From NCBI GenBank assembly GCA_965223265.1, contig OZ244999.1, positions 5,728,001 through 5,792,000 on the forward strand: a stretch of DNA of 64,000 nt, read 5' to 3'. The stretch is from Planctomycetota bacterium. GTDB taxonomy: Bacteria > Planctomycetota > UBA8108 > SXIK01. The notes under the pieces were generated by a model. That model ran no database searches. It was not told the DNA's origin and saw only the letters and a list, made by a program, of their open reading frames with translations. The position numbers and the translations under genes are program-made. Shown piece after piece: positions 18,908 to 40,086 of the stretch. Positions within the stretch are counted from its first letter, which is position 1. The number at the start of each line of letters is the position of its first letter.

Positions 18908-19963
18908 ATGGTCAGGCTAAAGAATTTCTGGTACATCGCCGCACCGTCTGTCGAGCTCAAGCGTCGCCCGATTCGGCGCGTCGTCGAGGGCGAAACCGTG
19001 GCACTGTTTCGTGACACGCTGGGCAAATGTCACGCGCTGCGCGATCGCTGTGTGCATCGAGGTATGGCCCTTTCAGCAGGCCGGGTGGTTGGCAGCTGCA
19101 TCCAGTGCCCATATCACGGCTGGCAGTATGACAGCGACGGGCACATTCGCTCCGTGCCGGCTCTTTGCGACACTGAGGACCTTCCAACGGCGAGAACACG
19201 CTCGTTTCCGGTTCGCGAACAAGACGACCACATCTGGGTCTGGATCGGCGATGAAGAGCCGACCACACAACCCTTTCACTTTCCTCGCTACGGAGAGCAC
19301 GGCTGGTCCACCTTCTTCATGCAGACTCGTTTCAATGCGCCAGTCGAGCTGTGTCTCGAGAATTTCCTCGACGTACCGCACACACTCTTCGTCCACCCAG
19401 GCCTGTTCCGCAAAGACGAACTGAGGAACACCCGTGCCCAAGTGCGGACCTACAAAAACGGCGTCGAAGCGGAGTTCATGAATGAAGCGCCGCTGGAAGG
19501 CATTGGCCCACGGCTACTTTTTCCGCGCGGTACGAAGATGGAGCACACCGATCGCTTCATTCTGCCTTCGATCTCACGCGTAGACTATCGCTTCGGTGAT
19601 GCCTATCAGTTCATCATTTCGTCACAGTGCACACAGCGTGACGACGACGTCGTAGATGTCGTCACGGCGATCACCTGGCGACTCCCTCTGCCTGCAATTG
19701 CCGTTGGCCCATTCCTGCGCTGGTACTGCCGGCGTGTGATTCAGCAGGACGTCGAGACTCTGGAGATTCAAGGCGAGCAGTTGAGACGCTTCGGTCGCTG
19801 CGATCTTCACACCTCCGCCGACCTTCTTGGCCGGCAAATCTGCGAACTCCGACGCCAGGCGATAGAGGGATTGAACCAGCGAGTGGATGTCGACAACTCT
19901 GCGAGTGACGAGCGCCGAGCGCCGACACGCGAGTTCTGCAGAGAGATCGAACTTCGAATATAG
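18908..19963 (+). CDS. Rieske non-heme iron oxygenase (VanA/KshA-like)
   Basis: DRCVHRG...CPYHGW cluster ligands; ENFLDVPHTLFVH mononuclear Fe motif; QQD; GAGGAG RBS. Confidence 0.92.
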   Translation: MVRLKNFWYIAAPSVELKRRPIRRVVEGETVALFRDTLGKCHALRDRCVHRGMALSAGRVVGSCIQCPYHGWQYDSDGHIRSVPALCDTEDLPTARTRSFPVREQDDHIWVWIGDEEPTTQPFHFPRYGEHGWSTFFMQTRFNAPVELCLENFLDVPHTLFVHPGLFRKDELRNTRAQVRTYKNGVEAEFMNEAPLEGIGPRLLFPRGTKMEHTDRFILPSISRVDYRFGDAYQFIISSQCTQRDDDVVDVVTAITWRLPLPAIAVGPFLRWYCRRVIQQDVETLEIQGEQLRRFGRCDLHTSADLLGRQICELRRQAIEGLNQRVDVDNSASDERRAPTREFCREIELRI

Positions 19964-19974
19964 CAAAACGAGGC

Positions 19975-20703
19975 ATGACGATGCTCCAAGGATCTGTGCA
20001 GCCGCGGCAATCCGTCTCTGATGACGACGTCGAACGCATGTATCGCCTCTTCTGCAATTACTACACACATGTAAGGCGAGACGTCTTCTATCGCGACTGG
20101 AAGGAGAAACATTGGGCACTCACGCTGCGCGACGAGTCAGGAGACCTTCGCGGCTTCACGACGCTCATGCTCTATGATCTCAAGGTTCTCGGAAAGCGTA
20201 TTCGTGCTGTCTTCAACGGCAACACCATCATCGACCGCGACTGCTGGGGAGAGCAGGAACTGGTGCGAACGTGGTGCACGTTCATGTCGACGCTCAAGAC
20301 GCAGCAGCCCGATCTCCCTCTCTACTGGTTTCTCATCTCCAGCGGCTACCGCACGTATCTTTTTCTGCCGCTCTTTTTCCGTGAGTTCTTTCCGCGCTAC
20401 GACCGAAGTACCCCGCCGCTCGAGCAGCACATCATCGACTCCCTGGGACGACTGAAATTTCCGGGGGAGTACCGTGACGGCATCGTACGTGTTTCCGAGC
20501 AGCGCGAGTGCTTTCGCTCAGACTTAGCGAAGCCATCGCCTGGACGCCTACGGAACGATCACGTCAAGTTCTTCGTGACCCAGAATCCAAACTTCGCACG
20601 AGGCGACGAATTGGTCTGCCTGACGGAGTTCTCCTTCGCCAACACGAAACGAATGGCCCATGAGAAACTCGCTGAGACGTTGATGGACAAAAACGTGAGT
20701 TAA
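19975..20703 (+). CDS. Hypothetical protein, probable GNAT-like fold, GH3-cluster associated
   Basis: Operon position; LRGFTT, FNGNTIIDRDCWG and YWFLISSGYRTY patterns compatible with an acyltransferase fold (inference). Confidence 0.65.
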   Translation: MTMLQGSVQPRQSVSDDDVERMYRLFCNYYTHVRRDVFYRDWKEKHWALTLRDESGDLRGFTTLMLYDLKVLGKRIRAVFNGNTIIDRDCWGEQELVRTWCTFMSTLKTQQPDLPLYWFLISSGYRTYLFLPLFFREFFPRYDRSTPPLEQHIIDSLGRLKFPGEYRDGIVRVSEQRECFRSDLAKPSPGRLRNDHVKFFVTQNPNFARGDELVCLTEFSFANTKRMAHEKLAETLMDKNVS

Positions 20704-20885
20704 CAGCCCGTTGAAACAGGGTTTCGTTCTCCGAACCGGCTCCCTCACGCTCAGCTCAGCTCGACCGCATCGGCACCCGCCATGTATGCCTTTTAGAAAA
20801 AGCTCGAAGATCACCCGCGCTTGCCACTGCTGCGGCGGATGCGAATGATCCGGTTATTCGACTAAAGCACTCTTTCGACAGGCCG
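20704..20885. mobile_element. 182-bp MITE-like insertion with TTAA duplication
   Basis: TTAA (20700-20703) CAGCCCGTTGAAA ... TTTCGACAGGCCG TTAA (20886-20889); terminal inverted repeats match at 10/13 positions. Confidence 0.7.
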
Positions 20886-20908
20886 TTAAAAGCGTCTTCA
20901 AGCTACCA

Positions 20909-22411
20909 ATGATCACTCGCTGTCTCGGCAACGCTCTTTGGCTCCGGTCAAACCTCCGTCATGCAGCAGCATATCGCCGCGCCCTGAGCAATCCGCGTCG
21001 AGCTCAAGAAGAGATTCTCTTCGCTTTTCTCGAGCGCAACGCGACCTCAGCGTACGGGCGCCAATTTCGTTACGCCCAAATACGATCGGTGCACGATTTT
21101 CAGCAAGCCGTGCCAGTGGTCACCTACGACGACCTCGTGCCGTGGATCGATCGCATGCTGCACGGAGAGGAGAGAGTGCTGACGACGGAGGCTGTGCTCC
21201 GGTTCGAGAAGTCGAGTGGCTCAAATGGACCGGCGAAGTTCATTCCATACACCGAAACGCTGCTGCAGCAGTTCCGGGCTGCGATCGGCGCCTGGATCGA
21301 GGACATGTACCGTGCACGTCCGGGGCTCGCTTTCGGATCCCAGTATTGGTCCGTCTCGCCGATCGTGACCGAACGCGAGCACACACCTGGTGGCCATCCC
21401 ATCGGCATGGAGGACGACACTGAGTACTTCGCGCCGGCCGTTCGTCGTTGGCTCCGCTGGATCATGGCGGCCCCTGGAGCCCTCGCGGCCACGCAAGATG
21501 TCGGCGAACACCGGAGGCTCACGCTCGCTCACCTCATGCGCGCTCGCGACCTCCGGTTCATTTCGGTATGGAATCCAAGCTTCTTGACGCTACTCCTTGA
21601 GCAACTGCCGGCACCCGAGCTGGCGACGAAACTCTGGCCGCGGCTGCAGCTCATCAGCTGTTGGACGAGCGGCGCTGCAGCACGCGCAGTCGGCGACCTT
21701 GAGCGTCTCTTTCCGGACGTCGAGATTCAGGGCAAGGGACTCATGGCAACCGAGGGCGCCGTTTCGATTCCGCGCTTTCCGGACGCCTCATCGCCCTCTA
21801 CTCAAGTGACAATTCCCAGCCCTGCGCTGACGTCTCACTTCTTGGAGTTCATCGCCTCAGACGGCAGCGTTCACCTCGTGGGCGACCTCGACCCCGGAGA
21901 GACCTACCGCGTCGTCTTGACAGCGGGCAACGGATTCGCCCGCTACGACCTCGGCGACCGAGTTCGAGCCGCTCCACCACTGCCTGGCGAACGTGTCGCT
22001 CGCATCGAGTTCGTTGGCAGGGACAGCAACTTCACGGATCTGTGCGGAGAGAAGCTCAACGAGGTCTTCGTCGGAGACATCATCGAGGGCGTCGTTCAGC
22101 GGTTTGACGTCAACGGTATCGCCATGTTGGCCCCGGAGTGGGGCCAACCGCCTCACTATCTCCTCTTTGTCGACTCGCCCCAGGCTCCCACCATTGCAGC
22201 GGCAGTCGAAGATCGCCTCCGCACTTCGTTTCACTACGACTACTGCCGACGTTTGGGACAGCTCGGCCCCACCGAAGGGATTTACTGTCAGCGCGGCAAC
22301 GAAGCTTACCTCGGCGTGCGCGCTGCTCAAGGCATGCGCCTTGGCAACGTCAAGCCAACGTATCTTCGCCGCGAACTAGATTGGAGGAAACGGCTCGCAG
22401 CTCATGCGTGA
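20909..22411 (+). CDS. GH3-family acyl-adenylate/amide ligase
   Basis: AYGRQF, VPVVTYDDL, FEKSSGSNGPAKFIPYT, GLMATEG, RYDLGD, FVGR...DLCGEKL. Confidence 0.9.
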   Translation: MITRCLGNALWLRSNLRHAAAYRRALSNPRRAQEEILFAFLERNATSAYGRQFRYAQIRSVHDFQQAVPVVTYDDLVPWIDRMLHGEERVLTTEAVLRFEKSSGSNGPAKFIPYTETLLQQFRAAIGAWIEDMYRARPGLAFGSQYWSVSPIVTEREHTPGGHPIGMEDDTEYFAPAVRRWLRWIMAAPGALAATQDVGEHRRLTLAHLMRARDLRFISVWNPSFLTLLLEQLPAPELATKLWPRLQLISCWTSGAAARAVGDLERLFPDVEIQGKGLMATEGAVSIPRFPDASSPSTQVTIPSPALTSHFLEFIASDGSVHLVGDLDPGETYRVVLTAGNGFARYDLGDRVRAAPPLPGERVARIEFVGRDSNFTDLCGEKLNEVFVGDIIEGVVQRFDVNGIAMLAPEWGQPPHYLLFVDSPQAPTIAAAVEDRLRTSFHYDYCRRLGQLGPTEGIYCQRGNEAYLGVRAAQGMRLGNVKPTYLRRELDWRKRLAAHA

Positions 22412-23615
22412 AGTCATAGAACGCACAAGGAAAGTTCGACGCGCACAGTTCTTCGATGAACGAAAGAGCCTCTTCCGGTCGCTCGATAGCCGGCCTGCAT
22501 TCTCGGATACGTCCGCGGCTACGTCCGCGGGTGCGATGCGCTTCGAACTGGCGACGCCAAGCGACGACGAAGCGCTTCGCGCGCTCCTTCGCGAAACTCC
22601 AATACCCGGTATGGCAGAAGTCGCGTTTTTGCGTGAGCCGAGCTACTTTCGCGCCGCAGCCGTGGCTGGCACCCACGTTCAAACGCTCGTCGCGCGCGCG
22701 GGCGGCCAAATCGCCGCGGTCAGTACGAGGGCCATTCGTCCAACTTTCATCAACGGCAGGCGCACCGACGCAGGTTACTTAGGAGACCTTCGCGTCCGGC
22801 CAGAGTTTCGCGGCACGACGCTGCTCGCGCGTGGCTACCGGTTCCTCCGCCGGCTTCATGACGACGGCCGCGCCCGACTCTACTCCACGATGATCATGGA
22901 AGGCAATCGCAACGCCCTGTCCACGATTGCGGCGAACCGCGCCGATCTGCCGTGCTACTCGGATCAAGGCCGCGTCTTCACCCCCATGCTGCACGTCCGG
23001 CGGTCTCGCAGAGTAAACCTGGCGAGATCCGAAACGCTCGAACGTGGTCGACCTGAGACTCTCGACGAGATCGTCGCGGCGCTGAACCGTGACCGTCTAC
23101 AGTTCGCTCCGGCGTATTCGCGCCATGACTTTCTCGGCGGCCGCTACGCCAACTTTTCTGTAGAGGACTTCTTTGTGCTGCGGCGCACCGGCCGCATCGT
23201 TGCCGTCGCGGGTCTATGGGACCAACGACCCGCACGCCAGACCGTAGTGACGCGATACTGCGGTGCGCTAAAGGCGCTCCGGCCACTGGTGAACTTACTG
23301 CGTCGTCCCAAGTTGCCGCAGCCACACACACCGTGGAACTATGCCTACGTCGCCTTTGCCTACAGCCGCGACACGGAAAGCTTTCGCAAAATTCTACGAT
23401 CCATCCATAACCACGTCGGCGGCGTTGGGCTCGAAGACGGGCGCTGCAGTGACATCGATTTCCTGATCATCGGTCTCCACGAAGATGATCCTCGCGCCGC
23501 CGTTCTCAGCGAATTTCGTACGACTCCATTCAGCGGTCGACTTTTCGCCGTGACTTTCGACGCCCCATTACCGTTCGATGGCCGCACCCCCTTCGTTGAG
23601 GCGGCTTTGCTATGA
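22404..23615 (+). CDS. GNAT-like N-acyltransferase
   Basis: FLREPSYF; GYLGDLRVRPEFRG acetyl-CoA motif A. True start may be the internal MRFELA. Confidence 0.75.
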   Translation: MREVIERTRKVRRAQFFDERKSLFRSLDSRPAFSDTSAATSAGAMRFELATPSDDEALRALLRETPIPGMAEVAFLREPSYFRAAAVAGTHVQTLVARAGGQIAAVSTRAIRPTFINGRRTDAGYLGDLRVRPEFRGTTLLARGYRFLRRLHDDGRARLYSTMIMEGNRNALSTIAANRADLPCYSDQGRVFTPMLHVRRSRRVNLARSETLERGRPETLDEIVAALNRDRLQFAPAYSRHDFLGGRYANFSVEDFFVLRRTGRIVAVAGLWDQRPARQTVVTRYCGALKALRPLVNLLRRPKLPQPHTPWNYAYVAFAYSRDTESFRKILRSIHNHVGGVGLEDGRCSDIDFLIIGLHEDDPRAAVLSEFRTTPFSGRLFAVTFDAPLPFDGRTPFVEAALL

Positions 23616-24586
23616 AGGTACTTGACGATCGCTCCGATGTTCGAAGTCTTGTTTTCATCGCCGCGCTTCTTCTCTTGATCGGACTGCAGTGGTGTGGAGC
23701 GGCTCGAGACTCAGTTCTCTACGCCGCCACCCTTTGGCTCAGTTTTGTCGCCTGCATCGTCAATCACAATCACCAACACTGCGCGACGTTCTGTTCGGCG
23801 GTCGGAAATCGCCTCTTCGGCATTCTGTTGACTTTCTCAATCGGTCAGCCCGCGACGGCGATCGTTCCGATGCACAACCACAACCACCATCCGCACAACA
23901 ACTCGGCGCACGACTACGTGCGCGTCTCACAGGTCACCTATCGCTGGAATCTCCTCAATTTGCTTCTGTTTCCGTTCGTTGCGGTCAAGAACTATGCGGC
24001 CGTCAAATCTCAACAGATGCGGCAGTGGCGTCGACTCGACCCGCGCCTTTTCGCGCAACTGCGCTGGGAACGAACACTCTTCTACCCGACGCTGCTTCTT
24101 TTGGTGTTCGCTCGCCCGGTCGAAACCGTTCAGTTCTGCATCCTGCCTTATCTCTTCGGGCAGTGGAGCATCATCGCGATCAATCTCGTGCAACATGACG
24201 GCTGCGACGCCCAGTCCAGACATAACCACTCACGCAACTTCACCGGTCGGTGGCTCAACTGGTGGACACTCAACAACGGCTATCACACAGCACACCATAT
24301 GCGCCCACAGATGCACTGGAGCCGTCTGCCGACGCTTCACGCGGAGATCCAGGCGTCCATCCACCCTAAGCTGCGCCGAGGGTCGCTGCTGTGGACCCTC
24401 TTTCAATTCTATCTTTGGCCGGGTCGCCGCGCCCAGGTGGCGGAACTACGGCGCCCCGCTGTGCGACCCAGCTTGTCGGCAAGCGAAGCGGCGCCGGAGT
24501 GTGAGTCGATTCGGTTGGGCCAGAAGCAACAGCATCGGCGGCCAAGTTTGGAAACCGTGGGAAGTCAGGAGAGTCAAAACGCATGA
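23612..24586 (+). CDS. Fatty acid desaturase-family membrane diiron enzyme
   Basis: His boxes HNHQH, HNHNHH and HTAHH; ATGA overlaps at both ends. Confidence 0.9.
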   Translation: MKVLDDRSDVRSLVFIAALLLLIGLQWCGAARDSVLYAATLWLSFVACIVNHNHQHCATFCSAVGNRLFGILLTFSIGQPATAIVPMHNHNHHPHNNSAHDYVRVSQVTYRWNLLNLLLFPFVAVKNYAAVKSQQMRQWRRLDPRLFAQLRWERTLFYPTLLLLVFARPVETVQFCILPYLFGQWSIIAINLVQHDGCDAQSRHNHSRNFTGRWLNWWTLNNGYHTAHHMRPQMHWSRLPTLHAEIQASIHPKLRRGSLLWTLFQFYLWPGRRAQVAELRRPAVRPSLSASEAAPECESIRLGQKQQHRRPSLETVGSQESQNA

Positions 24587-27500
24587 AACCGTTCTCCAAT
24601 CGAGCGCCGGCGAATTCAGCAACTACCGCGAAAGCTTCGGAGGTGTCGGAGCCACAACCCCCACAGCGCTGGCTGCGATGGTGGTTAGCAGCGGCCCTCT
24701 CGATCCTCGCTGCCATAGCGCTCCTGTTTTATCGCCACCAGAACATGTCAGCTGGTGTCGGCGGCCCCATCTCGCTTCCCAAGATACTCTGGCTTGCGTT
24801 CGCCGTTGGCACTTGGTTCGTCGTCCCCCCCTTTCTATGGCGCGACCGTCGCTTGAATCGTCCGACGCGTCAACTGTTCGGGTATTTTTGGATCGCCATG
24901 ATGGTGCGGGGCGTTCTCGAGATCATTCTCATTTACTTTTTCCACCACTGGACGCCCTGGTATGGCATCGCTCACGACCTCTTTTGCGTGCTACTGATCC
25001 TCGCACTACGTCGCCGTGTGCCGTCATCGGGTCCGGAGGCGACGAACGAAAGCCATCGAGCCCGCCGCTTCTCCTCGTCAATCGTTGTCGCACTCCTGGC
25101 CGAGACGGCGTTTGCGGCGATGTTTCTCCAGGCACAGGTGCACCATGAAGCGATCTACTTCGTCTCGTCCGCTTCGTCCTGGGGTTACGTCAACCTCACG
25201 ACCATCGCTGTACTCATGTTTCTGTACCCGGACCTGATCGCTATGCTGATCACGCTCTACTTTCCGGGTGTCTCCCGCGAGACTCCACGGGCGCTGAGGC
25301 TGGCAGGTGCCGTAGGTCGTTTCGCTACCGTGGTCCTGGTCGCTGCTGCCCTCTCCTTTTGGACGTGGATGCAGAGTGTCGAGCGAACCGCGCGGCAGTT
25401 TCAAGACGTCGGCTATCAAGTCGTCGACTCGTGTACACAATTCAAAGAAGACTTCGTGCTGGCCCGTCGAGATCGGATGGCAGACTTCATTGACTCGGGT
25501 GTAGCTACGTGGCGCCGTGTCTCGCGTCAGCACAACCATCCTTTCGAGATCCTCGAGTGGCAACCTGGGGGCGAAGAGGACCGACGCCCGCTCCTCGACG
25601 CGCTGCTCGAAATGCGCCACCGCTTCACCAGCCTGACGGCGGCGGCGTTCAAGATCCATCTCGTCGAGCGCTCCGATGACGAAGACGCCATCGTGCAGCT
25701 TCGTTTCGAGGTCAGTGGTGTCGAACGCAACCTTGCTGGGATCCCCGCGCTCCACGGCACTGACCGTGGACTACTTCGCTGCTCATTTCATCTCGGCGAC
25801 GATGGCCGTTGGCGGATCACGCAATCGTCGCTGCTCGAAGGGGTCTCTGTTCGCGGCAAGGCTCGTTCGTTTCGAGACGTCGCCGAAGAGCGTGGGGTCG
25901 CCTTCTTCATGGAACCAGACCGCCGCTTCCTTCCGGGGGAGAAATGCGACGCTCATCGCTGCGGCGACTATGGCAGACTCCACTTTCAAACCATGCGCCA
26001 CGCCTATGCAGGCTGCTCGACAGCCGACTACGACGGCGACGGGCATGACGACGTGCTTCTCTGTGCCGGAGGACGCTCCCGACTCTATCGAAACAAGGGA
26101 GACGGCACATTCCATGAGACCACGGCGCGAGCTGGCCTACCGGAGCTGTGGCACGTCAACACTGCCGGATTCGCTGATTTGGACAACGACGGCGACCAAG
26201 ACCTCTTCTTAGGTGCTTTCTACGGACAGAATCGTCTGTTCGAGAACATGGGTGGCGGAAGATTCAGGGAAGCAACAGAGCGCTCGAGTCTTGGTCGAGA
26301 CGACGCGGTCACGTGCTTTGCATTCTTCGACTACGACCGCGACGGCGATCTCGACCTTTACCTCGGCCGCTTCCTCGAAGCACGTCGCGAAATACCAGAT
26401 TCCTTTCTCTATGCCCGCAACGGCGAGCCCAATGTTCTCTACGAGAACGAAGGAGGGCTTCGGTTCCGCGACGTCACAAAGAAGGCCGGCGTGGGCGACC
26501 GAGGTTTAACCCTCAGTCTCGCAGCTGCTGACTATGACGAAGACGGCGACCAAGATCTCTATGTCGCAAACGACTTCGGCCGCAATCTCCTCTACGAGAA
26601 CCGCGGCGATGGTTCGTTCCAAGATGTGGCCAAACAACGCGGGGCGTTAGCCATTGGCGGCAGCATGAGCGCCAGTTGGGGCGACTATGACAACGATGGC
26701 AGACTCGATCTTTACGTCGCCGCGATTCGCTCCAACCAGCGCTGGTTTGTCCAGCCGATCACAGCACGGCGCGTCATCTTCAAATTCTTCCGCGAGGGGA
26801 AACTGGGAACGGACAACCCCGTACTCTCCGACCTCAGGAGCTACATGGGAAGAGACTGGGTCAACATCGGCAACCACGCTCTCGCGGGCAACTCGCTGCT
26901 TAGGCAAACGCCTGAGCACAACTTCACCGAGCAGGCTGAGCTGGCGCACGCTCGGCCCGCGGGTTGGTATTGGAGTTCCGGCTTCATAGACCTCGACCAT
27001 GACGGCGATCTTGACATCCTGGCGACGAACGGGTGGATCACGGGCAAGAAATCTCACGACTTGTGAGCTGAATTCAACACCGGTGCGGTCGCACCGGATC
27101 GCCCCTACAAGAGTGGCTACCTCTTCAGCGACGCCTTTCTGCGTGACTTCTCCTGGAACGGCAACGAGCGCAATCGTTTCCTTGTGAACATGGGCGAAGG
27201 CGTGTTCGTCGAGGCTGCGACTCCGTATGGACTCGATAGCATTCGCGACGCTCGAGGTCTCGCAGCGTCCGACTTCGATGGCGACGGAGATGTCGACTTG
27301 ATCGTCAATAACTACAACCGCCCAGCGCACTACTTCGCCAACGATGCGGCACGAGGCAACTGGCTACGCGTGCGCCTGCGGGGACGGACAAGCAATCGAG
27401 ACGGCATCGGAGCCACCGTGCGGGTTGAAACAGGAACGCACCGGCAAATGCGCGTCGTAACAGCGGGGAGCGGCTACGCATCGCAGTCTTCGCGGACGGT

Positions 27501-27669
27501 ACATTTCGGCCTTGGGACATACGACACCGTGGATCTCCTCGAAATCAAATGGCCGGGAGGCGATCGCGGCAGCGCAGTACGACAGAGTTTCAGGGACGTC
27601 AGTGTGAATCGGTTGCTGGTCATAGATGAACACGAGCATGAGCTATTCGCGATGGAGCCGTCACGGTGA
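24583..27669 (+). CDS. Membrane domain + FG-GAP repeat + ASPIC/UnbV (CRTAC1-family) protein; candidate selenoprotein (UGA at 27064-27066)
   Basis: ORFs 24583-27066 and 27184-27669 share a frame, and the 39 codons between them are open and family-like (FSWNGNERNRFL). Multiple DxDxDGDxDL repeats; C-terminal SNRDGIGA...GSGYASQS...HFGLG UnbV domain; SECIS-like hairpin after the UGA. Confidence 0.8.
27064..27097 (+). promoter_or_regulatory. UGA plus putative bacterial SECIS element
   Basis: UGA-N13-CCGGUGC-GGUC-GCACCGG: 7-bp perfect stem with GGUC loop. Confidence 0.7.
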
Positions 27670-28697
27670 GGAGGGACGCAGTGATCAGTAGTCCAAGCGC
27701 ACTGCTCGAGAAGAACCCGGCCCGATTGCCGCTTCGAGAACTTCTCGATCAGGCTCGAGAGCACGCCAACTCGCCGAGGTCGTTGAACGTTGTTGCACCG
27801 ATCGCCACGGATCGATTCTTCATCTGCCCGACTGCGACACCGCTTTACTATACCTCACTCTACCGAAAGCTCTCCGAAGAGCAGGCGCGACGCTACAACC
27901 AGCTCACGGCGCTCTCTTTCAACGAGCTCATCATGGCCCTCGAAAGAAGCATCGCCCCAGTGCTTTTCGCCGCCCTACGCGGCGCAGCCTGGTTTCACCG
28001 TACCGATCCACCGTCCGAGCTTGTCGACTACTTCGAGTTCTTCGAAGCCGAAGAGCGTCGACACCTGCGTATGTGGCAGGCCCTGAACCAACTCGCCGAA
28101 CCCAAGTGGTATGAGGGCGAGAACGTCCATTTCTTCCAGACACGGACGCGCCCATCGTCAATGCTCCGAACACTCTGTTCGCGCCCCCACCTCGTTTCAA
28201 CAGTGCTTTGGATCATGCTCCTGCAGGAGGAGATGACGATGGAGTTAGCGCGCCGCTGTGCCAGAAGCTGTCTCGAACCACTCGAGCCTCGCTTCGGAGA
28301 GGCGTACCGCCTACACGTCGAAGATGAAGTTCGACATGTTCAGATTGACTGGTACGTGATTGAACACTTGCGTGCCGCGCAGAGCCCTCGGGTGCGCCGA
28401 TTGAACGCGAGGATAGTCCGATTCCTCGTGAAGACGTTCTTTCTGGCGCCACGTCGACTCGCTGTCAAGGTCGCCAAAGAGCTCGTCCGCGAGTTTCCGA
28501 GTCTACGGCCAAGCCTTTCACGGATGCAGAGGGAACTGAAGGGGCTCGGATCGGATCTTGAATACCAGCACATGATGTACTCGCGTCGAAGCCACCCTAT
28601 TTCGTTTCATTTGTTCGACTGCTACCCGGAATTTGAGGCCATGAGACACGTGCTCTTCTCCTACCAACCAGGTGAGTCTTCCCGTGCGCAGTCATAG
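27666..28697 (+). CDS. AurF/CmlI-like ferritin-fold diiron oxygenase
   Basis: TPLYYT...Y..LS, EAEERRH, LQEE and HVEDEVRH ligand motifs; GTGA overlap with the upstream gene. Confidence 0.82.
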   Translation: MRRDAVISSPSALLEKNPARLPLRELLDQAREHANSPRSLNVVAPIATDRFFICPTATPLYYTSLYRKLSEEQARRYNQLTALSFNELIMALERSIAPVLFAALRGAAWFHRTDPPSELVDYFEFFEAEERRHLRMWQALNQLAEPKWYEGENVHFFQTRTRPSSMLRTLCSRPHLVSTVLWIMLLQEEMTMELARRCARSCLEPLEPRFGEAYRLHVEDEVRHVQIDWYVIEHLRAAQSPRVRRLNARIVRFLVKTFFLAPRRLAVKVAKELVREFPSLRPSLSRMQRELKGLGSDLEYQHMMYSRRSHPISFHLFDCYPEFEAMRHVLFSYQPGESSRAQS

Positions 28698-29622
28698 CGG
28701 TGTGCCGTCAACATTTCCGATACCGACCGCGTGGAACGTGTCGATCATTATGGTGCAATGGCTTGCGTTCTTTGCATGCTGCTGGTGGGCTGCAAGGATC
28801 GAAACCTGGACGCAGACGCTTGGTCTGGCACTTGTGTTCGGCATTCTTGGCAACTCGATCTATTCCGTCCTTCATGAAGCGGAACACGGGATCCTTCTTC
28901 CGAACCGCCGCCTGAACGATCTCGCCGGTGTCATGATGGCGCTCCTCTTCCCGGCGCCGTTTCATCTGCTGCGGCAAGGACATCTCGGGCACCACCTCAG
29001 AAACCGCTCCGACGACGAAGCCTTCGACCTCGTCATCGAGGGCGAGCACCCCGTGTGGAAGCGCATTCAGTTTTACGGGATCATCACTGGTTTTTACTGG
29101 CTTGCCGTCGTGCTCGGCAACTTCGTAGCTCTCTTTGCGCCGACGCTATTGAGGTCTCAGTCGCTGCGGTTTGACAAAGCGACAGCGGCTCTACTCGATT
29201 CACTCAATCCACGCTATCTGCGCCTGATCCGCATCGAAGCATGTGCCGCGCTTGCCTTCCACACAAGTGTCGTATGGGCATTCGGCATCGCGCCAGCGAC
29301 CTACTTCTGCGTTTACTTCGGTTTCGGCTGGATGTGGTCCGCCATGCAATACGTACACCACTTCGGGACCGAACGCCACGTAGTGCGCGGCACTCGCAAT
29401 CTCTGGGTGTGGCGCCCGCTCGACGCCGTTTGGCTGCACCACAATCTGCATTTGAACCACCACGCCCACCCGACCGTTCCGTGGATTCACCTACCAAAGC
29501 TCAGCGAAGGCGCAGAAACGACACGAGGGTTTCTGCCGTGGTACTACCTCCGCATGTGGCGTGGCCCTCAGCCAACGGCGGAACACGTGGAGAACCGTTA
29601 TGCGGGACGGATCATTGACTGA
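28672..29622 (+). CDS. Fatty acid desaturase-family protein
   Basis: His boxes HEAEH, HLGHH, QYVHH and HLNHH; PTVPWIHLP. Confidence 0.9.
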   Translation: MSLPVRSHSGVPSTFPIPTAWNVSIIMVQWLAFFACCWWAARIETWTQTLGLALVFGILGNSIYSVLHEAEHGILLPNRRLNDLAGVMMALLFPAPFHLLRQGHLGHHLRNRSDDEAFDLVIEGEHPVWKRIQFYGIITGFYWLAVVLGNFVALFAPTLLRSQSLRFDKATAALLDSLNPRYLRLIRIEACAALAFHTSVVWAFGIAPATYFCVYFGFGWMWSAMQYVHHFGTERHVVRGTRNLWVWRPLDAVWLHHNLHLNHHAHPTVPWIHLPKLSEGAETTRGFLPWYYLRMWRGPQPTAEHVENRYAGRIID

Positions 29623-30355
29623 TCTAACGAATGATGCAGCGCAGAAGGTCTTAGGCGATTCGGTCGTCGGCCGGGAAGAGCCGACGCATGTAAAGCTGCA
29701 GCGGAAGGCCAACATAGGCACCGGGACAAAACTCTTCATGATCCTCACGGGCTACATTCCTCTCGCTCACGCCGTCTTCTGTGCGTTTCTGTTTGTCGCG
29801 GTCGTAGCCGCCGCTGGTCCAGCATGGGGAGTCGCGACGGCGCTCAGCGCATTGTACATAGCCCCGGCGCTTCTCGTGCGCTCGGTTCGTCGCGTTGCGG
29901 CAGTGCCCAACGGCCGATACGGCCCAGCGACGATCACATTTCGACTCTGGTGGTTCTGTGCGCAGTGCCAGCTTCTCTTCAATCGACTGCCGATCTTGGA
30001 GGAGTGCCTCCGCGTTGTCCCAGGTCTCTACTCCGCGTGGATCCGGCTTTGGGGCTCACGCGTGGGCTCGCTCGTCTACTGGGCACCAGGCGTCGTGGTG
30101 TTCGACCGACAGCTCTTGCGCATTGGGCATCGTGTCGCGTTCGGTGGCCGCGCCCACATAACGCCACACTACATGGCCAAAGACGACGACGGCTGCATCG
30201 AGCTCTGCATCGCACCGATCACCATAGGAGACGACGCCCTCGTTGGCGGCCTGTCGCTCGTTCCGGCCGGTGCGACCATTGAACCAGGTGGAGTGACTCG
30301 CGTTCGCGGCGTCGTCAAACCGTTCGAAGTCTACGGCAGGACGTCCGAAGTATGA
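29561..30355 (+). CDS. Membrane-anchored hexapeptide-repeat (left-handed beta-helix) acyltransferase
   Basis: Two TM helices, then WIRLWGSRVG...IGHRVAFG...ITIGDDALVG. Start probably further downstream. Confidence 0.75.
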   Translation: MALSQRRNTWRTVMRDGSLTDLTNDAAQKVLGDSVVGREEPTHVKLQRKANIGTGTKLFMILTGYIPLAHAVFCAFLFVAVVAAAGPAWGVATALSALYIAPALLVRSVRRVAAVPNGRYGPATITFRLWWFCAQCQLLFNRLPILEECLRVVPGLYSAWIRLWGSRVGSLVYWAPGVVVFDRQLLRIGHRVAFGGRAHITPHYMAKDDDGCIELCIAPITIGDDALVGGLSLVPAGATIEPGGVTRVRGVVKPFEVYGRTSEV

Positions 30356-31119
30356 AATCGATCGGCAAACCACGGGCAGTCGAGGAAGGCGCCCGGAAGC
30401 GAAACCTCCTTGAACTCGTTTCGCGCGTGTGGCAGACGAAGCTAGCCCTCACCCTCGTTTTGCCGATTGCATTCTGCGTCTTCTACTTTCTGCTTCAGCA
30501 CCTCACCGAGATGCGAGTCACGACGTTCAAACTCACCAGCGTGGATCGCTGGATTCAGTTTCAACCGGAATGGATCTGGGTCTACCAGTCCGTCTATCTC
30601 GCGATGCCAATCGCACCGTGGCTTGCGGCCTCTAAGAGGGAGCTGAGGCGCTACGGAGAGGGTTTCGTGCTCCTGTCGCTGATCGGCTTCGGCATCTTCT
30701 CTCTCTATCCAGTCGCGGCCCCACGTCCCACGGACGTCCCGGCGCATGAAATGTACGCGCTATTGATCACTTACGACGGAATCGGCAACGCGTTTCCCTC
30801 TCTGCACTGTGCGTTGACATTTTACCATCTGCTGTTTGCGGAGCACACGACGACCACTCTGCTGTCACGGCGCGGACGACTGCTCTGGCGCGTCATAGGA
30901 GGCTTCTGGACCGCTGCGATCTGCTACTCGACGCTAGCAACGAAGCAGCACTATTTTGTCGACGTCGTAGCTGGTCTCGTGCTCGCTACGGCGGTGCACG
31001 CTGTTGTGTGGACGGAACGCACTAGGGCGACAAGCTTTCTCGCACTGCGGCGGCCAGCCGCTGTGCTGCACCCTACGGCGAGATCATGCACTCCAGCAAA
31101 CTCGCGAACCGACAACTGA
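30352..31119 (+). CDS. PAP2-superfamily phosphatase/phosphotransferase (AUR1/IPC-synthase-like)
   Basis: YPVAAPRP, NAFPSLH and TKQHYFVDVVAG motifs; about six TM segments. Confidence 0.85.
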   Translation: MKSIGKPRAVEEGARKRNLLELVSRVWQTKLALTLVLPIAFCVFYFLLQHLTEMRVTTFKLTSVDRWIQFQPEWIWVYQSVYLAMPIAPWLAASKRELRRYGEGFVLLSLIGFGIFSLYPVAAPRPTDVPAHEMYALLITYDGIGNAFPSLHCALTFYHLLFAEHTTTTLLSRRGRLLWRVIGGFWTAAICYSTLATKQHYFVDVVAGLVLATAVHAVVWTERTRATSFLALRRPAAVLHPTARSCTPANSRTDN

Positions 31120-31131
31120 AAGGAAGGTAAG

Positions 31132-31734
31132 ATGGATCGGATCAAATCAGGAAGTACTCTTCTCATCGGCGGCGCTCTATGCGCGACCTTCGCGTTCGCG
31201 ACCACTGTGAACGGTCAAGGCGACGAAGCCGAACACACAGCTCTTCGAGAACTCAAATCGATCTACGAAAAAGCTGTCAATGAAACACAGCTCGACTTAC
31301 TTGCCCCGCACTTGCACGCTAATTTCAGTGGGGTCATGGTCACAAACGACCCCGTAGCGAGCCAGAAAGACATCGAGGAGTACTGGCAATGGGTGTCGGG
31401 ACTCCTAGGCGACGGCGGCACGTATCGCGTCACACTCAATCCAGAGCGTAGCACTCTTCTCGGCAACTTTGCTCTGGCGAGAGGAACCGCAGACGAAGTC
31501 GCATCGATTCGCGGGAAGGAACTCAAGTTCCAGTCCAATTGGACCGCGCTTCTCGAGAAAGTCGATGGCGCCTGGAAGATCCTACGCGTTCACGGCTCCA
31601 TGAACCCAGTCGCGAATCCGTTTGCGAAAGCGAGCGCCAAGGCTGCGTCGTACACCAGCGGCGCTATCGGCGGTGGCATAGGGTTCGTTGTCGGGCTTTT
31701 GGTCATGTTGGTCACGCGCCGCAAGAAATCTTGA
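31132..31734 (+). CDS. SnoaL/NTF2-like (DUF4440-type) exported protein with C-terminal membrane anchor
   Basis: Signal peptide; WTALLEKVDGAWKILRVHGS; C-terminal TM followed by RRKK; GGAAGG RBS. Confidence 0.8.
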   Translation: MDRIKSGSTLLIGGALCATFAFATTVNGQGDEAEHTALRELKSIYEKAVNETQLDLLAPHLHANFSGVMVTNDPVASQKDIEEYWQWVSGLLGDGGTYRVTLNPERSTLLGNFALARGTADEVASIRGKELKFQSNWTALLEKVDGAWKILRVHGSMNPVANPFAKASAKAASYTSGAIGGGIGFVVGLLVMLVTRRKKS

Positions 31735-35307: not shown

Positions 35308-38300
35308 ATGTCCGTCGAGAAGTTGATCCGCGCGATTGAAAGTCGAAACACCGTCTCAGCTCTTGAACTCGTCCGCAGCGGAGTCGATGTCAATACTCGC
35401 TACGGGTTCATGGAGACGCCACCGATCGTGCTCGCTGCGCAGTTTGGCATCGCGCCTCTCGTCGACGCGCTGATTCAAGCTGGGGCCGATCCAAACCTCG
35501 CAGACTGTGGACGCAACACCGCACTGATGGAAGCCGTTCGCAGTGGCAGCGAGAGTATCGTTGACCTCTTGTTGAAGGCCGGCGTCAAGATCGACCGTGC
35601 GGACGACCTACGGATGACGGCGCTCCACTGGGCCGTTCACGGCCGCAGTGACGAGAAGGCAGGCAAAGATGGCGAAGCTGAGGTCGTCGTCGCGGAACGA
35701 CTCCTCTCGGCGGGCGCCAACGCCAACGCGCGAGACAGCGACGGCTACACACCTCTGATGACGGCAGCGCGCTGCGGCGCCGCACGCTTCCTGACGCCTT
35801 TGCTGCGCAACGGCGCGGATCCGAAGATCCGCAACCGAGACGGAGAAGACGCCGAGTCCATCGCAGCGCTGCGCGGCGCTCTTCACATCGTGGAGCGTCT
35901 CGCTGCCGAGTCGAGTGGAGATGACGACGCCCCAGATGCGGCGCTGATCCACGCCCTGAAGTCTGGTGACGAGGAGCGTGCGGCAGAATTGCTCGAGTCC
36001 GGTGTCGATGCCAACTCACGCGATCCGCAGACAGACTGGCCGGCGATCTACTGGGCCGCGCTACTCGGCCGCAGTGAGGTCGCCAAGAAGCTGCTCGCAA
36101 GCGGCGCGAATCCTGACAGCGGCGTGGAATCCGACACGCCGCTGTGCGCAGCTACACGACAAGGGCACGTCGAAACAGCTCGATCACTGATCGACTCCGG
36201 TGCTCGTGTCGAACCAGAGAAAGCAGCCGCGACCAGCGCGCTTTTTCTCGCAGCTTCGCGCGGTGAGACGCGCTTGATCTCGGCGCTGCTCGATGCTGGT
36301 GCAGCCGTCGATCGCGTCGACAAGGACGCTGAGCGAACGCCGCTCCTAGAGGCTGCCGGCGAAGGGCATGAGGAAGCAGTGCGCGTACTGCTAGCGGCCG
36401 GCGCTGATCCGAATGTGCGCCGCGGAGCCGTCGTTGAGCTTGTCGCTGCTGCCAACCACACGGCGCCGATGCGACTCTGTTTGAGTGCTGGCATCGACCT
36501 CGAGCGGGCGTCACGCACGCACGTCAAGGCGGCCGTCTTTCACGCCGCGTATCACGGCAACGGTGAAATCCTTCGCCTCCTGCTGGGCGCCGGCGCTGAT
36601 CCGGACGTGCGCAACGAGTACAAGGAGACGCCGCTGATCGTCGCTGCCGAGAAGGGACACCTGGATGCGGTCTCCGCTTTGATTTCTGGCGAAGCCAACG
36701 TCGAGAGAAAATGTGACGGCTACACGGCGCTCCACTGCGCCGTTCGCGGCGGCCATGTGGACGTTGTCGACGCTCTCCTCAGCGCGTCGGCAACGCTCTC
36801 GACGCGTGACCCCCTCCTGGCCGCGATCGTCTCCCGGGACGAAGACGCTGCCTGCGCCCGCATCGAAGACGGTGCAAAGCTCGACATCGAAGAGAAAGCG
36901 ACCGGGTGGACTCCCCTTCGACTAGCGATCCTTATGGGCCTCGACTCCGTCGTCGAGGCGCTACTCGGCGCGGGCGTCGAAGTGGCGCCGGGTGGCGAAG
37001 TAAAACACTCTCCGCTGGTGGAAGCCGCGCGGCTTGGTAGAGCGAACGCCGTCCAGCGCCTTCTCGACGGCGGCGCGATCACGGCAGGCGACGCGCCTGC
37101 AGCCTCCGATGCCCTCGTCACCGCCGCTAGAGAGGGGCACGCGGACGTCGTGCGCGCCTTACTCGCAACCGGCATCGACGTCGCAGGACGCGACTCAAAC
37201 GACAAGACGGCACTTGTCGCGGCATCGTCTCAAGGTCACCTCGAAGTCGTCAAATGCCTTGTCGACGCCGGCGCGGACATTTTGGAAACCGATCGCTTCG
37301 GCCCAGCAGTGCTCCTCGCCGCCGCACGCCACGACGACGTATCGCAGTACCTCTCGGAGCTCCTACGCGAGCACGACGCTCGTGCCGCCGACGCGGCGAC
37401 GTCGCAGATTCATCTCACCAAGGACACAGACGAGATCAGTACCGCAGGAGACGACGAAGAGGAGGGTGGCGTCGAGTCGTCGGTTCTCTCTGGCCTGGGA
37501 CGAATCGACGAACTCATCGAGGCTATCCTCGACGAAGACAGTGAACGCGTCGCAGCGCTGATCGACGCGGGTGCCGACGTCAACGGTCGCACCGATGAGG
37601 ACCACACACCTCTCCTCGTTGCCACGCTTGCGAATCTCGCGCCGTTCGTCGAACGCCTGCTCGCCGCGGGAGCCGATCCCAATCTCGAGACGCAACATCA
37701 GCCGGTTTTGTACACAGCTGCGTTCGCCGGCCACGAGAACATCGTCAAGCTGCTCATCGAGGCCGGCGCTGACCTCAACGCCGACGGCTACTACGGCACG
37801 GCGATCGCGGCCGCCTGCTACAAACGAGACGTTCCGGTTGCACAGAAACTCATCGACGCCGGCTGCGACGTCAACGTCGCCAATGAGCATCAAATAACGC
37901 CGCTCATGTACGCTGTGCGCGACATTGATCTGACCCAGCGAATGATCGCGGCTGGCGCCGACGTGAACGCGCGCGACGACCGCGGCACCCCCGCCATCGG
38001 CTGGGCGGCGAGTTCGTGCAGCATCGACGCCCAACGTGCCCTCTGGGCAGCCGCGCCTTTAGCGGCTGACGAGCGCTCTCTGGTCGACGCCATCATTGCC
38101 GGCGAAGCGGCGCGCGTCGAAGACTTCCTGCGCGGAGGTGAATCGCCGCGACAGAAGGACCCTCTCCTCGGGTGGCCACTGGTCCTGTGGGCGGCGCTCG
38201 CAGGTCACGGCGAAATGATCGAAGCGTTGGTTGAGGCCGGGGCCAAAGTGGACGCACGCGTGAGCACTGCCAACGCCATGGCTCTCGCCATCGCGGCGGG

Positions 38301-40086
38301 TCGCTTCGATCTCGCAGCGCAGCTCGTACGGCTGGGATTCAAGCCCGACTGCCGCATCCAAGATGTGCCACTGCTGGCACACGCGGCCCGGGCCGGCTCG
38401 GAAGAGCTCGTCGCCGCACTGCTCGAGCGCGGTGCGAAAGTCACCGGCGAAACCGTCATCGCGGCTGTGCGACAGGGCCATCAGAACATCGTCCGCCTTC
38501 TCTCACAACACGGAGCATCGCTCGACCTCAAAGGCGCTCTCGGCGAGGCCCCCCTCGCAGCTGCGATTCTCGCCAACCAAGGAGAGACATTCGACGCTCT
38601 CCTGAAACTCGGTGCCGATCCGAACAAGAAGTGTGACCGCGAAACACCACTCCACGTCAGCGTCAACGCTGGTCGCATCGGTTTCGTTCGCTCGCTCATC
38701 GAAGCGGGAGCGGACGTCTCGGTCAAAAACGGCGACGGTGACACGCCTCTTCATTTGGCGATCCGTGGTGGCGACGCCGCTTTGATCGGCGCTCTCACCG
38801 AGGTCGACTCGAACGTCGCGATCAAGAACTCACGCGGCCAAACGCCGCTTCACGAGGCCGCGCGTAGTGCCGACCGCGAGACGTTCTCGCTCCTGCTGCA
38901 GAGGGGCGCCGATCTTAAGGCCAAGGACAAGGAGAAACTAGGTGCACTGCGACTCGCAGCCGAAGAGCGTGAACCCGAGCTCGTCCGAGTTGCGGGCGAA
39001 TTCATCTGCACGCACGCTGAACGCTCTCCCGCGTGGCTGCGGGCAATCCTGGCCGACGACAAGGAGGCGCTCGCCGCTGAGCTTGAGCGCGGCGAGATCC
39101 GTACCCGACGCGACCCGGGGTCAAGTTGGACGCCGTTCGAGTGGGTAGCCGCCCTGGGCTCAGAGGAGCTCTTGGACCTCCTTCTTAGGCGATCCGCTCC
39201 CACGGCTCTGGCTCAGGCGAAAGCGCTACGGACGAGCTCGAGCAACGCACTCGTTCTCGCAGTCCACGGTGGACACTTGGGCTGCGCGCAGCGCCTTCTC
39301 AGTCTCACTTCGGACAGCGACGACGATGCCCCGTTCGCCGTGGCGCGCGAGGCAGCAGAAACGAACGGCTTCTTAACGCTCCGCCGCCTGATCGACGAAG
39401 CGACCGGCCACACTGCAGCAGAGGAGGGCGGCGCCGAGTCGAGAAAGGAGGAATCCGAAGAAGACGCCATGGTCGAACAGTGGATGCTCGACTTCGGCGC
39501 TTCGATCGATGTCGGCATCCAGATGCGGATCGAGCGCGTCAGACAGCTGCGACGACTCGGCACGCCACGCACACTCGTGCTCGATGGTCGATTCTCCCGC
39601 TTTTGGAAGGTGCCAAGCAAGCACCTCGACACCGACACAAAAAGGGCGCGACACCTTCAACCTTTCTTGTGGCGTCTCGACGTCGTTACGACGGCCCTGA
39701 CCGACCTCGGGTACTCTTCCATCGGCGACATTGTGAGCGAGCGCACGCTCGACGTCGTCACACGACTCTACGCCCACCCCAGCGCCACGGCGTACGCAGC
39801 GTTCAACGTTGGGGCTGTGGGACGCACAGTCGATTTCGTGACGCGATTCGAAGACGGGGCATTCTACACGACGACCTCACTAGACCAGTTCAACGCCGAT
39901 CCAGTGCAGCACCTCTACGGCAAGCCCTACCCTGGCGTTTCGATCGGGACGCTGCATGGCAAGCACGCGGCATGGGTGGGCGCCCGAGTTCGCCAGGGGT
40001 CGACCCCAATCCCAGCTCTCGGGGAGCTCGGCGCCGCCGCTGGCTGGATTGACGAGTTCCTGGCGCGGCAGCACGGAACGTTCTAA
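35308..40086 (+). CDS. Giant ankyrin-repeat protein (1592 aa) with an unrelated C-terminal domain
   Basis: Dozens of TPLxxAAxxGHxxxVxxLLxxGADxN repeats; final ~200 aa non-repetitive. Confidence 0.93.
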   Translation: MSVEKLIRAIESRNTVSALELVRSGVDVNTRYGFMETPPIVLAAQFGIAPLVDALIQAGADPNLADCGRNTALMEAVRSGSESIVDLLLKAGVKIDRADDLRMTALHWAVHGRSDEKAGKDGEAEVVVAERLLSAGANANARDSDGYTPLMTAARCGAARFLTPLLRNGADPKIRNRDGEDAESIAALRGALHIVERLAAESSGDDDAPDAALIHALKSGDEERAAELLESGVDANSRDPQTDWPAIYWAALLGRSEVAKKLLASGANPDSGVESDTPLCAATRQGHVETARSLIDSGARVEPEKAAATSALFLAASRGETRLISALLDAGAAVDRVDKDAERTPLLEAAGEGHEEAVRVLLAAGADPNVRRGAVVELVAAANHTAPMRLCLSAGIDLERASRTHVKAAVFHAAYHGNGEILRLLLGAGADPDVRNEYKETPLIVAAEKGHLDAVSALISGEANVERKCDGYTALHCAVRGGHVDVVDALLSASATLSTRDPLLAAIVSRDEDAACARIEDGAKLDIEEKATGWTPLRLAILMGLDSVVEALLGAGVEVAPGGEVKHSPLVEAARLGRANAVQRLLDGGAITAGDAPAASDALVTAAREGHADVVRALLATGIDVAGRDSNDKTALVAASSQGHLEVVKCLVDAGADILETDRFGPAVLLAAARHDDVSQYLSELLREHDARAADAATSQIHLTKDTDEISTAGDDEEEGGVESSVLSGLGRIDELIEAILDEDSERVAALIDAGADVNGRTDEDHTPLLVATLANLAPFVERLLAAGADPNLETQHQPVLYTAAFAGHENIVKLLIEAGADLNADGYYGTAIAAACYKRDVPVAQKLIDAGCDVNVANEHQITPLMYAVRDIDLTQRMIAAGADVNARDDRGTPAIGWAASSCSIDAQRALWAAAPLAADERSLVDAIIAGEAARVEDFLRGGESPRQKDPLLGWPLVLWAALAGHGEMIEALVEAGAKVDARVSTANAMALAIAAGRFDLAAQLVRLGFKPDCRIQDVPLLAHAARAGSEELVAALLERGAKVTGETVIAAVRQGHQNIVRLLSQHGASLDLKGALGEAPLAAAILANQGETFDALLKLGADPNKKCDRETPLHVSVNAGRIGFVRSLIEAGADVSVKNGDGDTPLHLAIRGGDAALIGALTEVDSNVAIKNSRGQTPLHEAARSADRETFSLLLQRGADLKAKDKEKLGALRLAAEEREPELVRVAGEFICTHAERSPAWLRAILADDKEALAAELERGEIRTRRDPGSSWTPFEWVAALGSEELLDLLLRRSAPTALAQAKALRTSSSNALVLAVHGGHLGCAQRLLSLTSDSDDDAPFAVAREAAETNGFLTLRRLIDEATGHTAAEEGGAESRKEESEEDAMVEQWMLDFGASIDVGIQMRIERVRQLRRLGTPRTLVLDGRFSRFWKVPSKHLDTDTKRARHLQPFLWRLDVVTTALTDLGYSSIGDIVSERTLDVVTRLYAHPSATAYAAFNVGAVGRTVDFVTRFEDGAFYTTTSLDQFNADPVQHLYGKPYPGVSIGTLHGKHAAWVGARVRQGSTPIPALGELGAAAGWIDEFLARQHGTF

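Follow-up and report, generated by a model that had tools for sequence, protein, structure and literature searches.

The window analyzed here is a stretch of 64,000 nucleotides (nt) from a Planctomycetota bacterium (contig OZ244999.1, positions 5,728,001 to 5,792,000 of the forward strand). It carries a gene for a predicted membrane-anchored protein with an FG-GAP β-propeller and a UnbV/ASPIC domain, whose reading frame is interrupted by one TGA codon. Two open reading frames (ORFs), 24583..27066 (827 aa) and 27184..27669 (161 aa), are joined in frame by the TGA at 27064–27066, and the 117 nt between them (27067–27183) contain no stop codon. An earlier note on this DNA had described this arrangement, and both its coordinates and its frame were reproduced. 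The read-through product has 1028 residues, and residue 828 lies in the context ...NGWITGKKSHDL-U-AEFNTGAVAPDR... (GKKSHDL-U-AEFNTG around the codon). The gene start overlaps the stop codon of the desaturase gene upstream, and the gene ends with an ordinary TGA (27667–27669). A perfect 7-bp stem with a GGTC loop (CCGGTGC-GGTC-GCACCGG) starts 13 nt after the in-frame TGA, where the earlier note had placed it, and its loop begins 23 nt past the U. Here, we propose that this UGA is very probably decoded as selenocysteine (Sec) and that the protein belongs to a clade of CRTAC1/ASPIC-UnbV propellers, as judged from sequence comparison.

The host and 40 relatives (41 genomes) were searched with residues 472–1028 of the query, stops being read through. 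Each of the 41 best-scoring rows contained exactly one TGA, and in all 20 fetched loci that were aligned, it fell in one shared column. When 20 more were added, the 41 aligned stretches (loci L022–L061) had TGA at this column in 33 cases, Cys in 1 (L048), a gap in 4, and another residue in 3. When one genome of each species was scanned, four further TGA loci emerged: one in a Planctomycetota metagenome-assembled genome (MAG), which is a 71% identical ortholog, two in Acidobacteriota assemblies, and one in an Akkermansiaceae MAG. In total, 36 distinct TGA contexts were collected from Planctomycetota, Acidobacteriota, and one Verrucomicrobiota MAG, all of them without a gap or frameshift. Cys occupies the column in seven homologs (P0005, P0006, L048, P0122, P0123, P0160, and P0164). 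The homolog alignment suggested earlier thus returned TGA and, less often, Cys. Separately, a locus of a Bryobacterales MAG (L066) has Gly in the Sec column (DL-G-SFFWRQVV) despite a selA match above the cut-off.

These data bear directly on the simplest reading of the TGA as a nonsense mutation, a pseudogene mark, or a sequencing error. Nothing beyond the presence of the stop codon speaks for it, and we regard it as extremely improbable; it is refuted by the conservation data, since TGA stands in the same column at 36 distinct loci, including paralogs and other phyla. The surrounding operon is also intact. As to the reads, the TGA is present in the contig assemblies of four runs in Logan (two samples, one study), which have 0 differences to the window over 26600–27600, although this single study is a possible source of the assembly and the independent support is correspondingly weak.

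The Sec forms are, by sequence, a distinct clade within CRTAC1/UnbV and not the whole superfamily. The clade is marked by NG[FWY] followed, after 5–7 residues, by D[LT]-U, by a clade-specific ERN motif, and by WxW. Other UnbV paralogs of the host genome have Thr, Val, or other residues in the column and lack the motif, and most CRTAC1-like proteins elsewhere have neither Sec nor Cys. The idea of a reactive residue in this family, raised in the earlier note, is qualified by this distribution: TGA or Cys recurs in a clade, whereas most CRTAC1-like proteins have neither and some clade members have Ser, His, Asp, or other residues. Three peptide contexts follow Sec, namely AEFNTGAV in the group of the window gene, [MP][DT]F[VL]ENVGRR, and S[FV][FY]WR[QH]VV, the last being the largest subgroup. 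A second member was found in the host genome (locus L144; C1:3156619-3158910, minus strand, 763 aa, TGA at 3157216-3157218). It is a lipoprotein (LLMAGC) with the hairpin GAGAACGUC-GGUC-GGCGUUC, and its neighbors are DUF1501, PSCyt2, SDR, and SGL proteins.

A database search with the region of the S[FV][FY]WR[QH]VV subgroup, which carries a thioredoxin-fold domain described below, returned 968 relatives; the figures given here and below are for the best 119 new ones. Among them, 84 are fragments of 688–850 aa beginning 3–32 residues past the Sec column, with the names "tetratricopeptide repeat protein", "ASPIC/UnbV domain-containing protein", and "TPR/peroxiredoxin". For these fragments (P0139–P0240), gene calling seems to have cut a selenoprotein gene at the UGA and kept its downstream half. 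The other 35 span the column; 3 are unrelated repeats, leaving 32 motif-bearing full-length relatives. The residues at the column in the 35 are Ser in 15, Cys in 4, Asp in 4, His in 3, Tyr in 2, Gln in 2, and five others once each, and no Trp was found there in motif-bearing homologs.

The split could also be real, in which case the UGA would be a true stop that separates an 827-aa truncated propeller from an independent UnbV protein of ~160 aa, with the hairpin as a coupling or regulatory element. Gene callers annotate the locus in this way, and the 84 C-terminal fragments among the 119 relatives look the same. Sec decoding is often inefficient, and some truncated product is therefore likely in any case. 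Nevertheless, we consider a true stop very unlikely, as the frame is intact in the 36 loci, the sequence from the TGA up to the earliest potential start codon shows conservation at the protein level, and a break would separate blade 6 of the propeller from blade 7. Moreover, each full-length homolog with Cys or Ser is one continuous polypeptide, and no Shine–Dalgarno-like purine-rich run was seen by eye in the 20 nt upstream of the GTG at 27184, in line with the earlier remark that the second ORF has no obvious ribosome-binding site.

The hairpin following the UGA resembles a bacterial Sec insertion sequence (SECIS) element. All three peptide contexts encode a stem of 6–7 bp capped by GGUC or GGUCG, or by CGUGG in one branch, and the loop starts 20–24 nt after the U of the UGA. 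The mean folding energy of the region from +8 to +50 is −12.7 kcal/mol in 33 Sec loci versus −8.8 kcal/mol at the corresponding column of 60 non-Sec homologs; the Mann–Whitney p value of 1e-8 for this contrast is generous because G+C is 0.63 in the Sec set versus 0.56 in the non-Sec set and the sequences are related. MAFFT did not bring the three registers of 36 SECIS stretches into one structural frame, and pairs were therefore counted per subgroup. In a group of 25 sequences, 96% of the cells pair, as compared with 11–69% for slid partners. One pair is AU in 17, CG in 4, and GC in 3 of these sequences; at this pair, synonymous changes in the third position of an Arg codon are matched by changes in the first position of a Ser, Pro, or Ala codon. 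In a group of eight sequences, 94.6% of the cells pair, and both sides change in three pairs. Covariation had been named earlier as a check, and the hairpin proved to be conserved with compensatory changes in these two larger subgroups, which are the ones covered by the formal counts; the subgroup of the window gene has three members. Taken together, the comparisons indicate that the hairpin is selected as an RNA element. A search of 26900–27300 against Rfam gave no matching family, the only hit being a chance-level snoRNA (E value of 6.9).

The host genome (9.18 Mb, one contig) was scanned for a TGA with an open frame on both sides followed by a stem of at least 6 bp with a GGTC loop at +18 to +26. 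Only nine sites were found, and three of them lie in real genes: the window gene, its paralog L144, and an FdhA-type gene. The last (L142, G000:C1:8398989-8401787) encodes a molybdopterin oxidoreductase (Molybdopterin Pfam, 259 bits) with a TGA at 8400141 in the context NCSRA-U-HAPTV. It serves as a positive control, having a 7-bp stem and a GGUC-type loop 21 nt after the UGA. Another scan site (3487289) lies in an ORF for a small membrane-anchored WD40 protein (L143, G000:C1:3487037-3487717; DDG-U-NFDC) and has a 9-bp GGUC-type hairpin. This candidate was dropped as probably a chance match, as a search of 20 relatives yielded no ortholog with the TGA.

The host genome encodes a full set of Sec machinery, the presence of which the earlier note had proposed to check. 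A tRNA-Sec (selC) was found with 70.3 bits, its anticodon being read as TCA by ARAGORN, and selB (324 bits), selA (548 bits), and selD (309 bits) were each detected above the curated cut-off. The selD match (G000:C1:3460739-3461653, locus L019) lies within a 790-aa open frame, much longer than the 311 positions of the model, which may reflect a fusion of SelD with a second domain. Among ordinary stops in this genome, TGA is the commonest, closing 1593 of the 2687 ATG-initiated ORFs of at least 400 aa, and it also terminates the candidate selenoprotein gene as well as 8 of the 10 neighbors in the operon. Genome-wide reassignment of TGA is excluded, and the recoding must therefore be local. In the proposed mechanism, the stem-loop 13 nt downstream would recruit SelB with Sec-tRNA(Sec) to the UGA at 27064, and the product would be one 1028-aa membrane-anchored protein with its propeller facing the periplasm.

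The UGA could instead be read through as an ordinary amino acid, such as near-cognate Trp, Cys, or Arg, the hairpin acting only as a stimulator without involvement of selenium. In other systems, read-through can be stimulated by a hairpin that follows the stop codon. On the other hand, the form and spacing of the hairpin match those of the textbook FdhA-type Sec site of the same genome, the GGUC-type loop is nearly invariant, the Sec machinery is complete, and the column is occupied by Cys in seven homologs and by Trp in no motif-bearing one. We therefore give ordinary read-through very little weight.

Some observations weigh against Sec decoding. The 71-nt region of the window taken alone folds no better than its shuffles (z = −1.07; 31 of 200 shuffles were as good); as a single fold it is unremarkable, and the case consequently rests on the comparison. 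Locus L062 has a bulged, weaker stem with an AGUU loop, and the stems of L099 and L119 are imperfect. The co-occurrence with selA is non-discriminating because 40 of the 41 genomes of the relatives set are positive. Outside this set, selA exceeded the cut-off in three of four genomes with the TGA form, and it was not found in the fourth, G041 (a 3.6-Mb assembly whose completeness is not given). Nonetheless, the homolog column, the Sec machinery, and the covarying hairpin all support the 1028-aa protein with Sec828 put forward in the earlier note, and Sec decoding remains our preferred reading.

The positions of the domains and neighboring genes are given in Table 1. The Lys plus Arg counts of the successive loops of the N-terminal membrane domain (4, 1, 5, 0, 6, 0, and 3) follow the positive-inside pattern, and for this reason the propeller and the rest of the protein are predicted to be outside the cytoplasm. 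The seven-segment domain is shared with the orthologs L023 and L062. Among the complete N-termini of the family, 8 of 19 have a canonical lipobox, three more resemble one on visual inspection, and hydrophobic anchors are present in the remainder, so that members are predicted to be exported or membrane-anchored. Residues 262–476 were modeled by AlphaFold with a predicted local distance difference test score (pLDDT) of 78.8 from only seven sequences. The top Foldseek matches of this model are solved NTF2-like structures, among them ketosteroid-isomerase-like proteins, bile-acid 7-alpha-dehydratase, and SgcJ, with E values of 4.6e-5 to 1e-3 and target-normalized template modeling (TM) scores of 0.5–0.7. 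The pair C455-x4-C460 is kept in the three membrane-anchored orthologs and is missing in the Cys homologs P0005 and P0006.

Table 1. Features of the candidate selenoprotein gene and its operon (window coordinates)
Feature	Position	Strand	Remarks
Whole candidate selenoprotein gene	24583..27669	+	1028 aa, Sec828
N-terminal polytopic membrane domain	24673..25356	+	7 hydrophobic segments, residues 31-258
NTF2-like (ketosteroid-isomerase-like) domain, predicted	25366..25860	+	AlphaFold and Foldseek; no Pfam hit
C455-x4-C460 pair	25945..25962	+	Just N-terminal of the propeller
Seven-bladed FG-GAP propeller	25996..27387	+	Pfam, AlphaFold, 7 DxDxDGxxD loops
In-frame UGA (candidate Sec codon)	27064..27066	+	Motif NGW-ITGKKSH-DL-U
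SECIS-type hairpin	27080..27097	+	Stem 27080-27086 / 27091-27097; loop 27087-27090
UnbV/ASPIC domain	27403..27618	+	PF07593, 66.5 bits, residues 941-1012
Rieske oxygenase	18908-19963	+	Operon, upstream
Unknown	19975-20703	+	Operon, upstream
GH3-like	20909-22411	+	Operon, upstream
Unknown	22404-23615	+	Operon, upstream
Fatty-acid-desaturase family	23612-24586	+	Operon, directly upstream
AurF-like diiron oxygenase	27666-28697	+	Operon, directly downstream
Fatty-acid-desaturase family	28672-29622	+	Operon, downstream
Unknown	29561-30355	+	Operon, downstream
PAP2	30352-31119	+	Operon, downstream
SnoaL/DUF4440-like	31132-31734	+	Operon, downstream

Pfam searches of the whole protein gave FG-GAP_3 (six stretches), FG-GAP, and UnbV_ASPIC above the cut-offs. 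The DxDxDGxxD loops are located at residues 482, 532, 583, 650, 701, 803, and 897, and Sec is 17 residues past the sixth. The AlphaFold model of residues 472–1028, built from a 37-row alignment, had a pLDDT of 87.3 and a predicted TM score (pTM) of 0.91. Its best match in the Protein Data Bank (PDB) is murine CRTAC1 (9etn_A; Foldseek E value of 5e-27 and TM score of 0.70; profile E value of 2.9e-41). Foldseek also matched aldos-2-ulose dehydratase (4a7z), a metal-dependent propeller enzyme, with an E value of 4.4e-8. In the model, Sec is residue 356 and forms the start of a helix (355–364) directly after a strand. The N-terminus of a helix is a position typical of reactive thiols and selenols.

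The largest subgroup gives a hint as to the role of Sec. Its members have a C-terminal TlpA-like thioredoxin-fold domain and TPR repeats. The CxxC motif is present in all 18 Sec loci that extend 286 residues or more beyond Sec, and in the 16 aligned sequences both the motif (C337 and C340) and the cis-Pro (P426) are invariant. Pfam detected AhpC-TSA in 15, Redoxin in 13, and TPR_14 in 13 of 16 sequences. The nearest NCBIfam models for the fused domain are TlpA, ResA, StoA, DsbE, and an MsrAB fusion (PRK14018), and no NCBIfam cut-off was reached, the best score being 51.6 bits for TlpA against a cut-off of 230. By sequence, the fused domain thus resembles the TlpA family and is not an equivalog. 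CxxC is intact in 84 of the 84 fragments downstream of the UGA versus 15 of the 32 full-length non-TGA forms (Fisher p value of 5.5e-12, which is inflated because the sequences are related). Where Ser, Asp, Gln, or Glu occupies the column of a full-length relative (P0126–P0222), the motif has often decayed, for example to SPAS, SDAS, WPAS, or APSS. This pattern suggests that the redox function has repeatedly been lost as a unit. Since CxxC is kept with Sec and lost with Sec, we infer that the two share a redox cycle outside the cytoplasm.

On this basis, we propose that Sec is a redox-active catalytic residue, which is oxidized in each turnover and re-reduced by thiols; the sequence patterns make this role probable, with less confidence than the decoding. 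A short helix located between blades 6 and 7 would carry Sec at its N-terminus. For the largest subgroup, the fused TlpA-like CxxC domain would act as the reductant. In the subgroup of the window gene, it may be C455-x4-C460 or an outside thiol.

Several points pull against a redox role. Ser is commoner than Cys at the column (15 versus 4 in the 32 full-length non-TGA relatives), and Cys is thus not the usual replacement; some members of the clade probably do something non-redox. No second Cys invariant across the clade was found. The fused thioredoxin domain is absent from the subgroup of the window gene and from the ENVGRR lipoprotein subgroup, and none of the neighbors adjoining either host copy is a thioredoxin-like gene. 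The model is weak near Sec, with a pLDDT of 54 at this residue followed by 45–48 (residues 361–380), and the helix-cap position is tentative because of this low local confidence.

Sec may instead be decoded but serve as a metal or cofactor ligand or as a structural residue, while the thioredoxin domain serves another client. We consider this the less likely role. The lack of a universally conserved resolving Cys and the short forms without a thioredoxin domain are compatible with it. Sec adjoins a Ca-binding loop of the propeller, the match to 4a7z is to a metal-dependent enzyme, and Sec is replaced by Ser, His, and Asp, with CxxC retained in 15 of the 32 such relatives. Against a ligand or structural role stand the strict retention of CxxC with Sec (84/84 and 18/18) and its decay in about half of the non-Sec forms, together with the predicted position at a helix N-terminus, for which the local confidence is low. 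We therefore continue with the redox-active Sec as the favored role.

The window operon (18908–31734) is on one strand, and the ends of its genes overlap or are closely spaced. The gene order from GH3 to PAP2 is identical in the ortholog locus L062 (1195–11047). The lipid or natural-product pathway setting suggested earlier fits the Pfam assignments and is syntenic in this 71% identical ortholog locus. A role on an oxidized lipid-type intermediate is plausible; as a guess, the substrate could be such an intermediate formed by the desaturase, diiron, and Rieske neighbors. More broadly, the family might be a large class of exported selenoenzymes based on the CRTAC1/UnbV calcium propeller, with Sec as the catalytic center, periplasmic recycling by a dedicated TlpA-like domain or a local Cys pair, and an NTF2-like pocket that presents a hydrophobic substrate, which in this operon would come from the neighboring desaturase and diiron oxygenase genes. 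We put this combined picture forward tentatively, as slightly more doubtful than not. Downstream of the operon, the window also contains a 1592-aa ORF (35308–40086, + strand).

The distribution of the largest subgroup was estimated with one strict DNA pattern, for which a reversed control pattern gave no hits. Of the 401 genomes sampled from the phylum, 35 had a match, representing 26 of 287 genera, with a maximum of seven sites per genome. The figure of 35 of 401 is a lower bound for the family, as the host genome itself has none of the largest subgroup. In the phylum of the Akkermansiaceae MAG (G042), one of 151 genomes matched, namely G042 itself (0 of the 150 others), and the family looks rare in this phylum in the sample of 151. 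G042 carries no fewer than five members of the family, counting locus L099 and four pattern sites, which may reflect horizontal transfer or a binning error.

A May 2026 review lists 119 prokaryotic selenoprotein families (PMC13188914, Table 1). No FG-GAP, UnbV, or CRTAC1 protein is among those in the table, although supplements or BSepDB could still hold one. Term look-ups in the main texts of that review and of PMC12013277, PMC13326102, PMC2398784, PMC9312934, and PMC1794560 gave no relevant match, and passages of PMC4807772 name fdhA and fmdB. Literature searches for selenoproteins or selenocysteine together with FG-GAP, ASPIC, CRTAC1, or UnbV gave nothing relevant, and the propeller part is not covered by any model in NCBIfam release 20. 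While the recoding mechanism is standard, the novelty lies in the protein family, in its exported location, and in the link to a built-in thiol reductase. To our knowledge, export is uncommon among bacterial selenoproteins, and we know of no biochemical function for the CRTAC1/UnbV superfamily.

The family, which is widespread and known chiefly from Planctomycetota, would be an addition to selenium biology that is missing from the newest catalogue and from the NCBI naming models. Public gene calls split these genes at the UGA, so that Planctomycetota proteomes are systematically wrong at these loci. The tie between Sec and a CxxC reductase domain is a testable hint of catalysis in CRTAC1/UnbV, and the operon would be a conserved gene set for lipid-type oxidation that includes a selenium-dependent step. 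If the proposal is true, CRTAC1/UnbV gains a catalytic redox branch, and the UnbV/E4 step of enediyne pathways merits a fresh look.

Comparison with known systems places these features in context. Like FdhA/FdhF-type genes, the window gene has an in-frame UGA followed by a GGUC-type stem-loop, Cys homologs, and selA–selD in the genome, and its spacing is similar to that of the FdhA-type gene of the host (loop start at +23 versus +21). In contrast to FdhA, the protein is an unrelated Ca-binding FG-GAP propeller with a UnbV domain, has no UxxC or CxxU motif, and is predicted to be exported or membrane-anchored. With CRTAC1/ASPIC-UnbV proteins (9etn and the enediyne UnbV/E4), it shares FG-GAP_3 and UnbV_ASPIC and the fold of 9etn_A. 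CRTAC1 is regarded as non-catalytic. The Sec clade differs in its D[LT]-U, WxW, and ERN motifs and its putative N-terminal NTF2-like domain, and often also in a C-terminal TlpA-like domain with TPR repeats. In the PilB-type MsrA/MsrB of Neisseria, a fused domain recycles the catalytic residue, and in the largest subgroup of the present family, a TlpA/ResA/DsbE-like CxxC domain is likewise joined to a proposed catalytic module outside the cytoplasm. The module here is a propeller with Sec and not Msr, and the window gene has no CxxC domain; this is a resemblance and not membership, as the scores are far below the family cut-offs. Thioredoxin-fold selenoproteins, some of which are exported, also combine selenium with thiol–disulfide chemistry. 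In those proteins, Sec is inside the active site, whereas the CxxC here is ordinary and Sec lies ~270 residues upstream, in the propeller.

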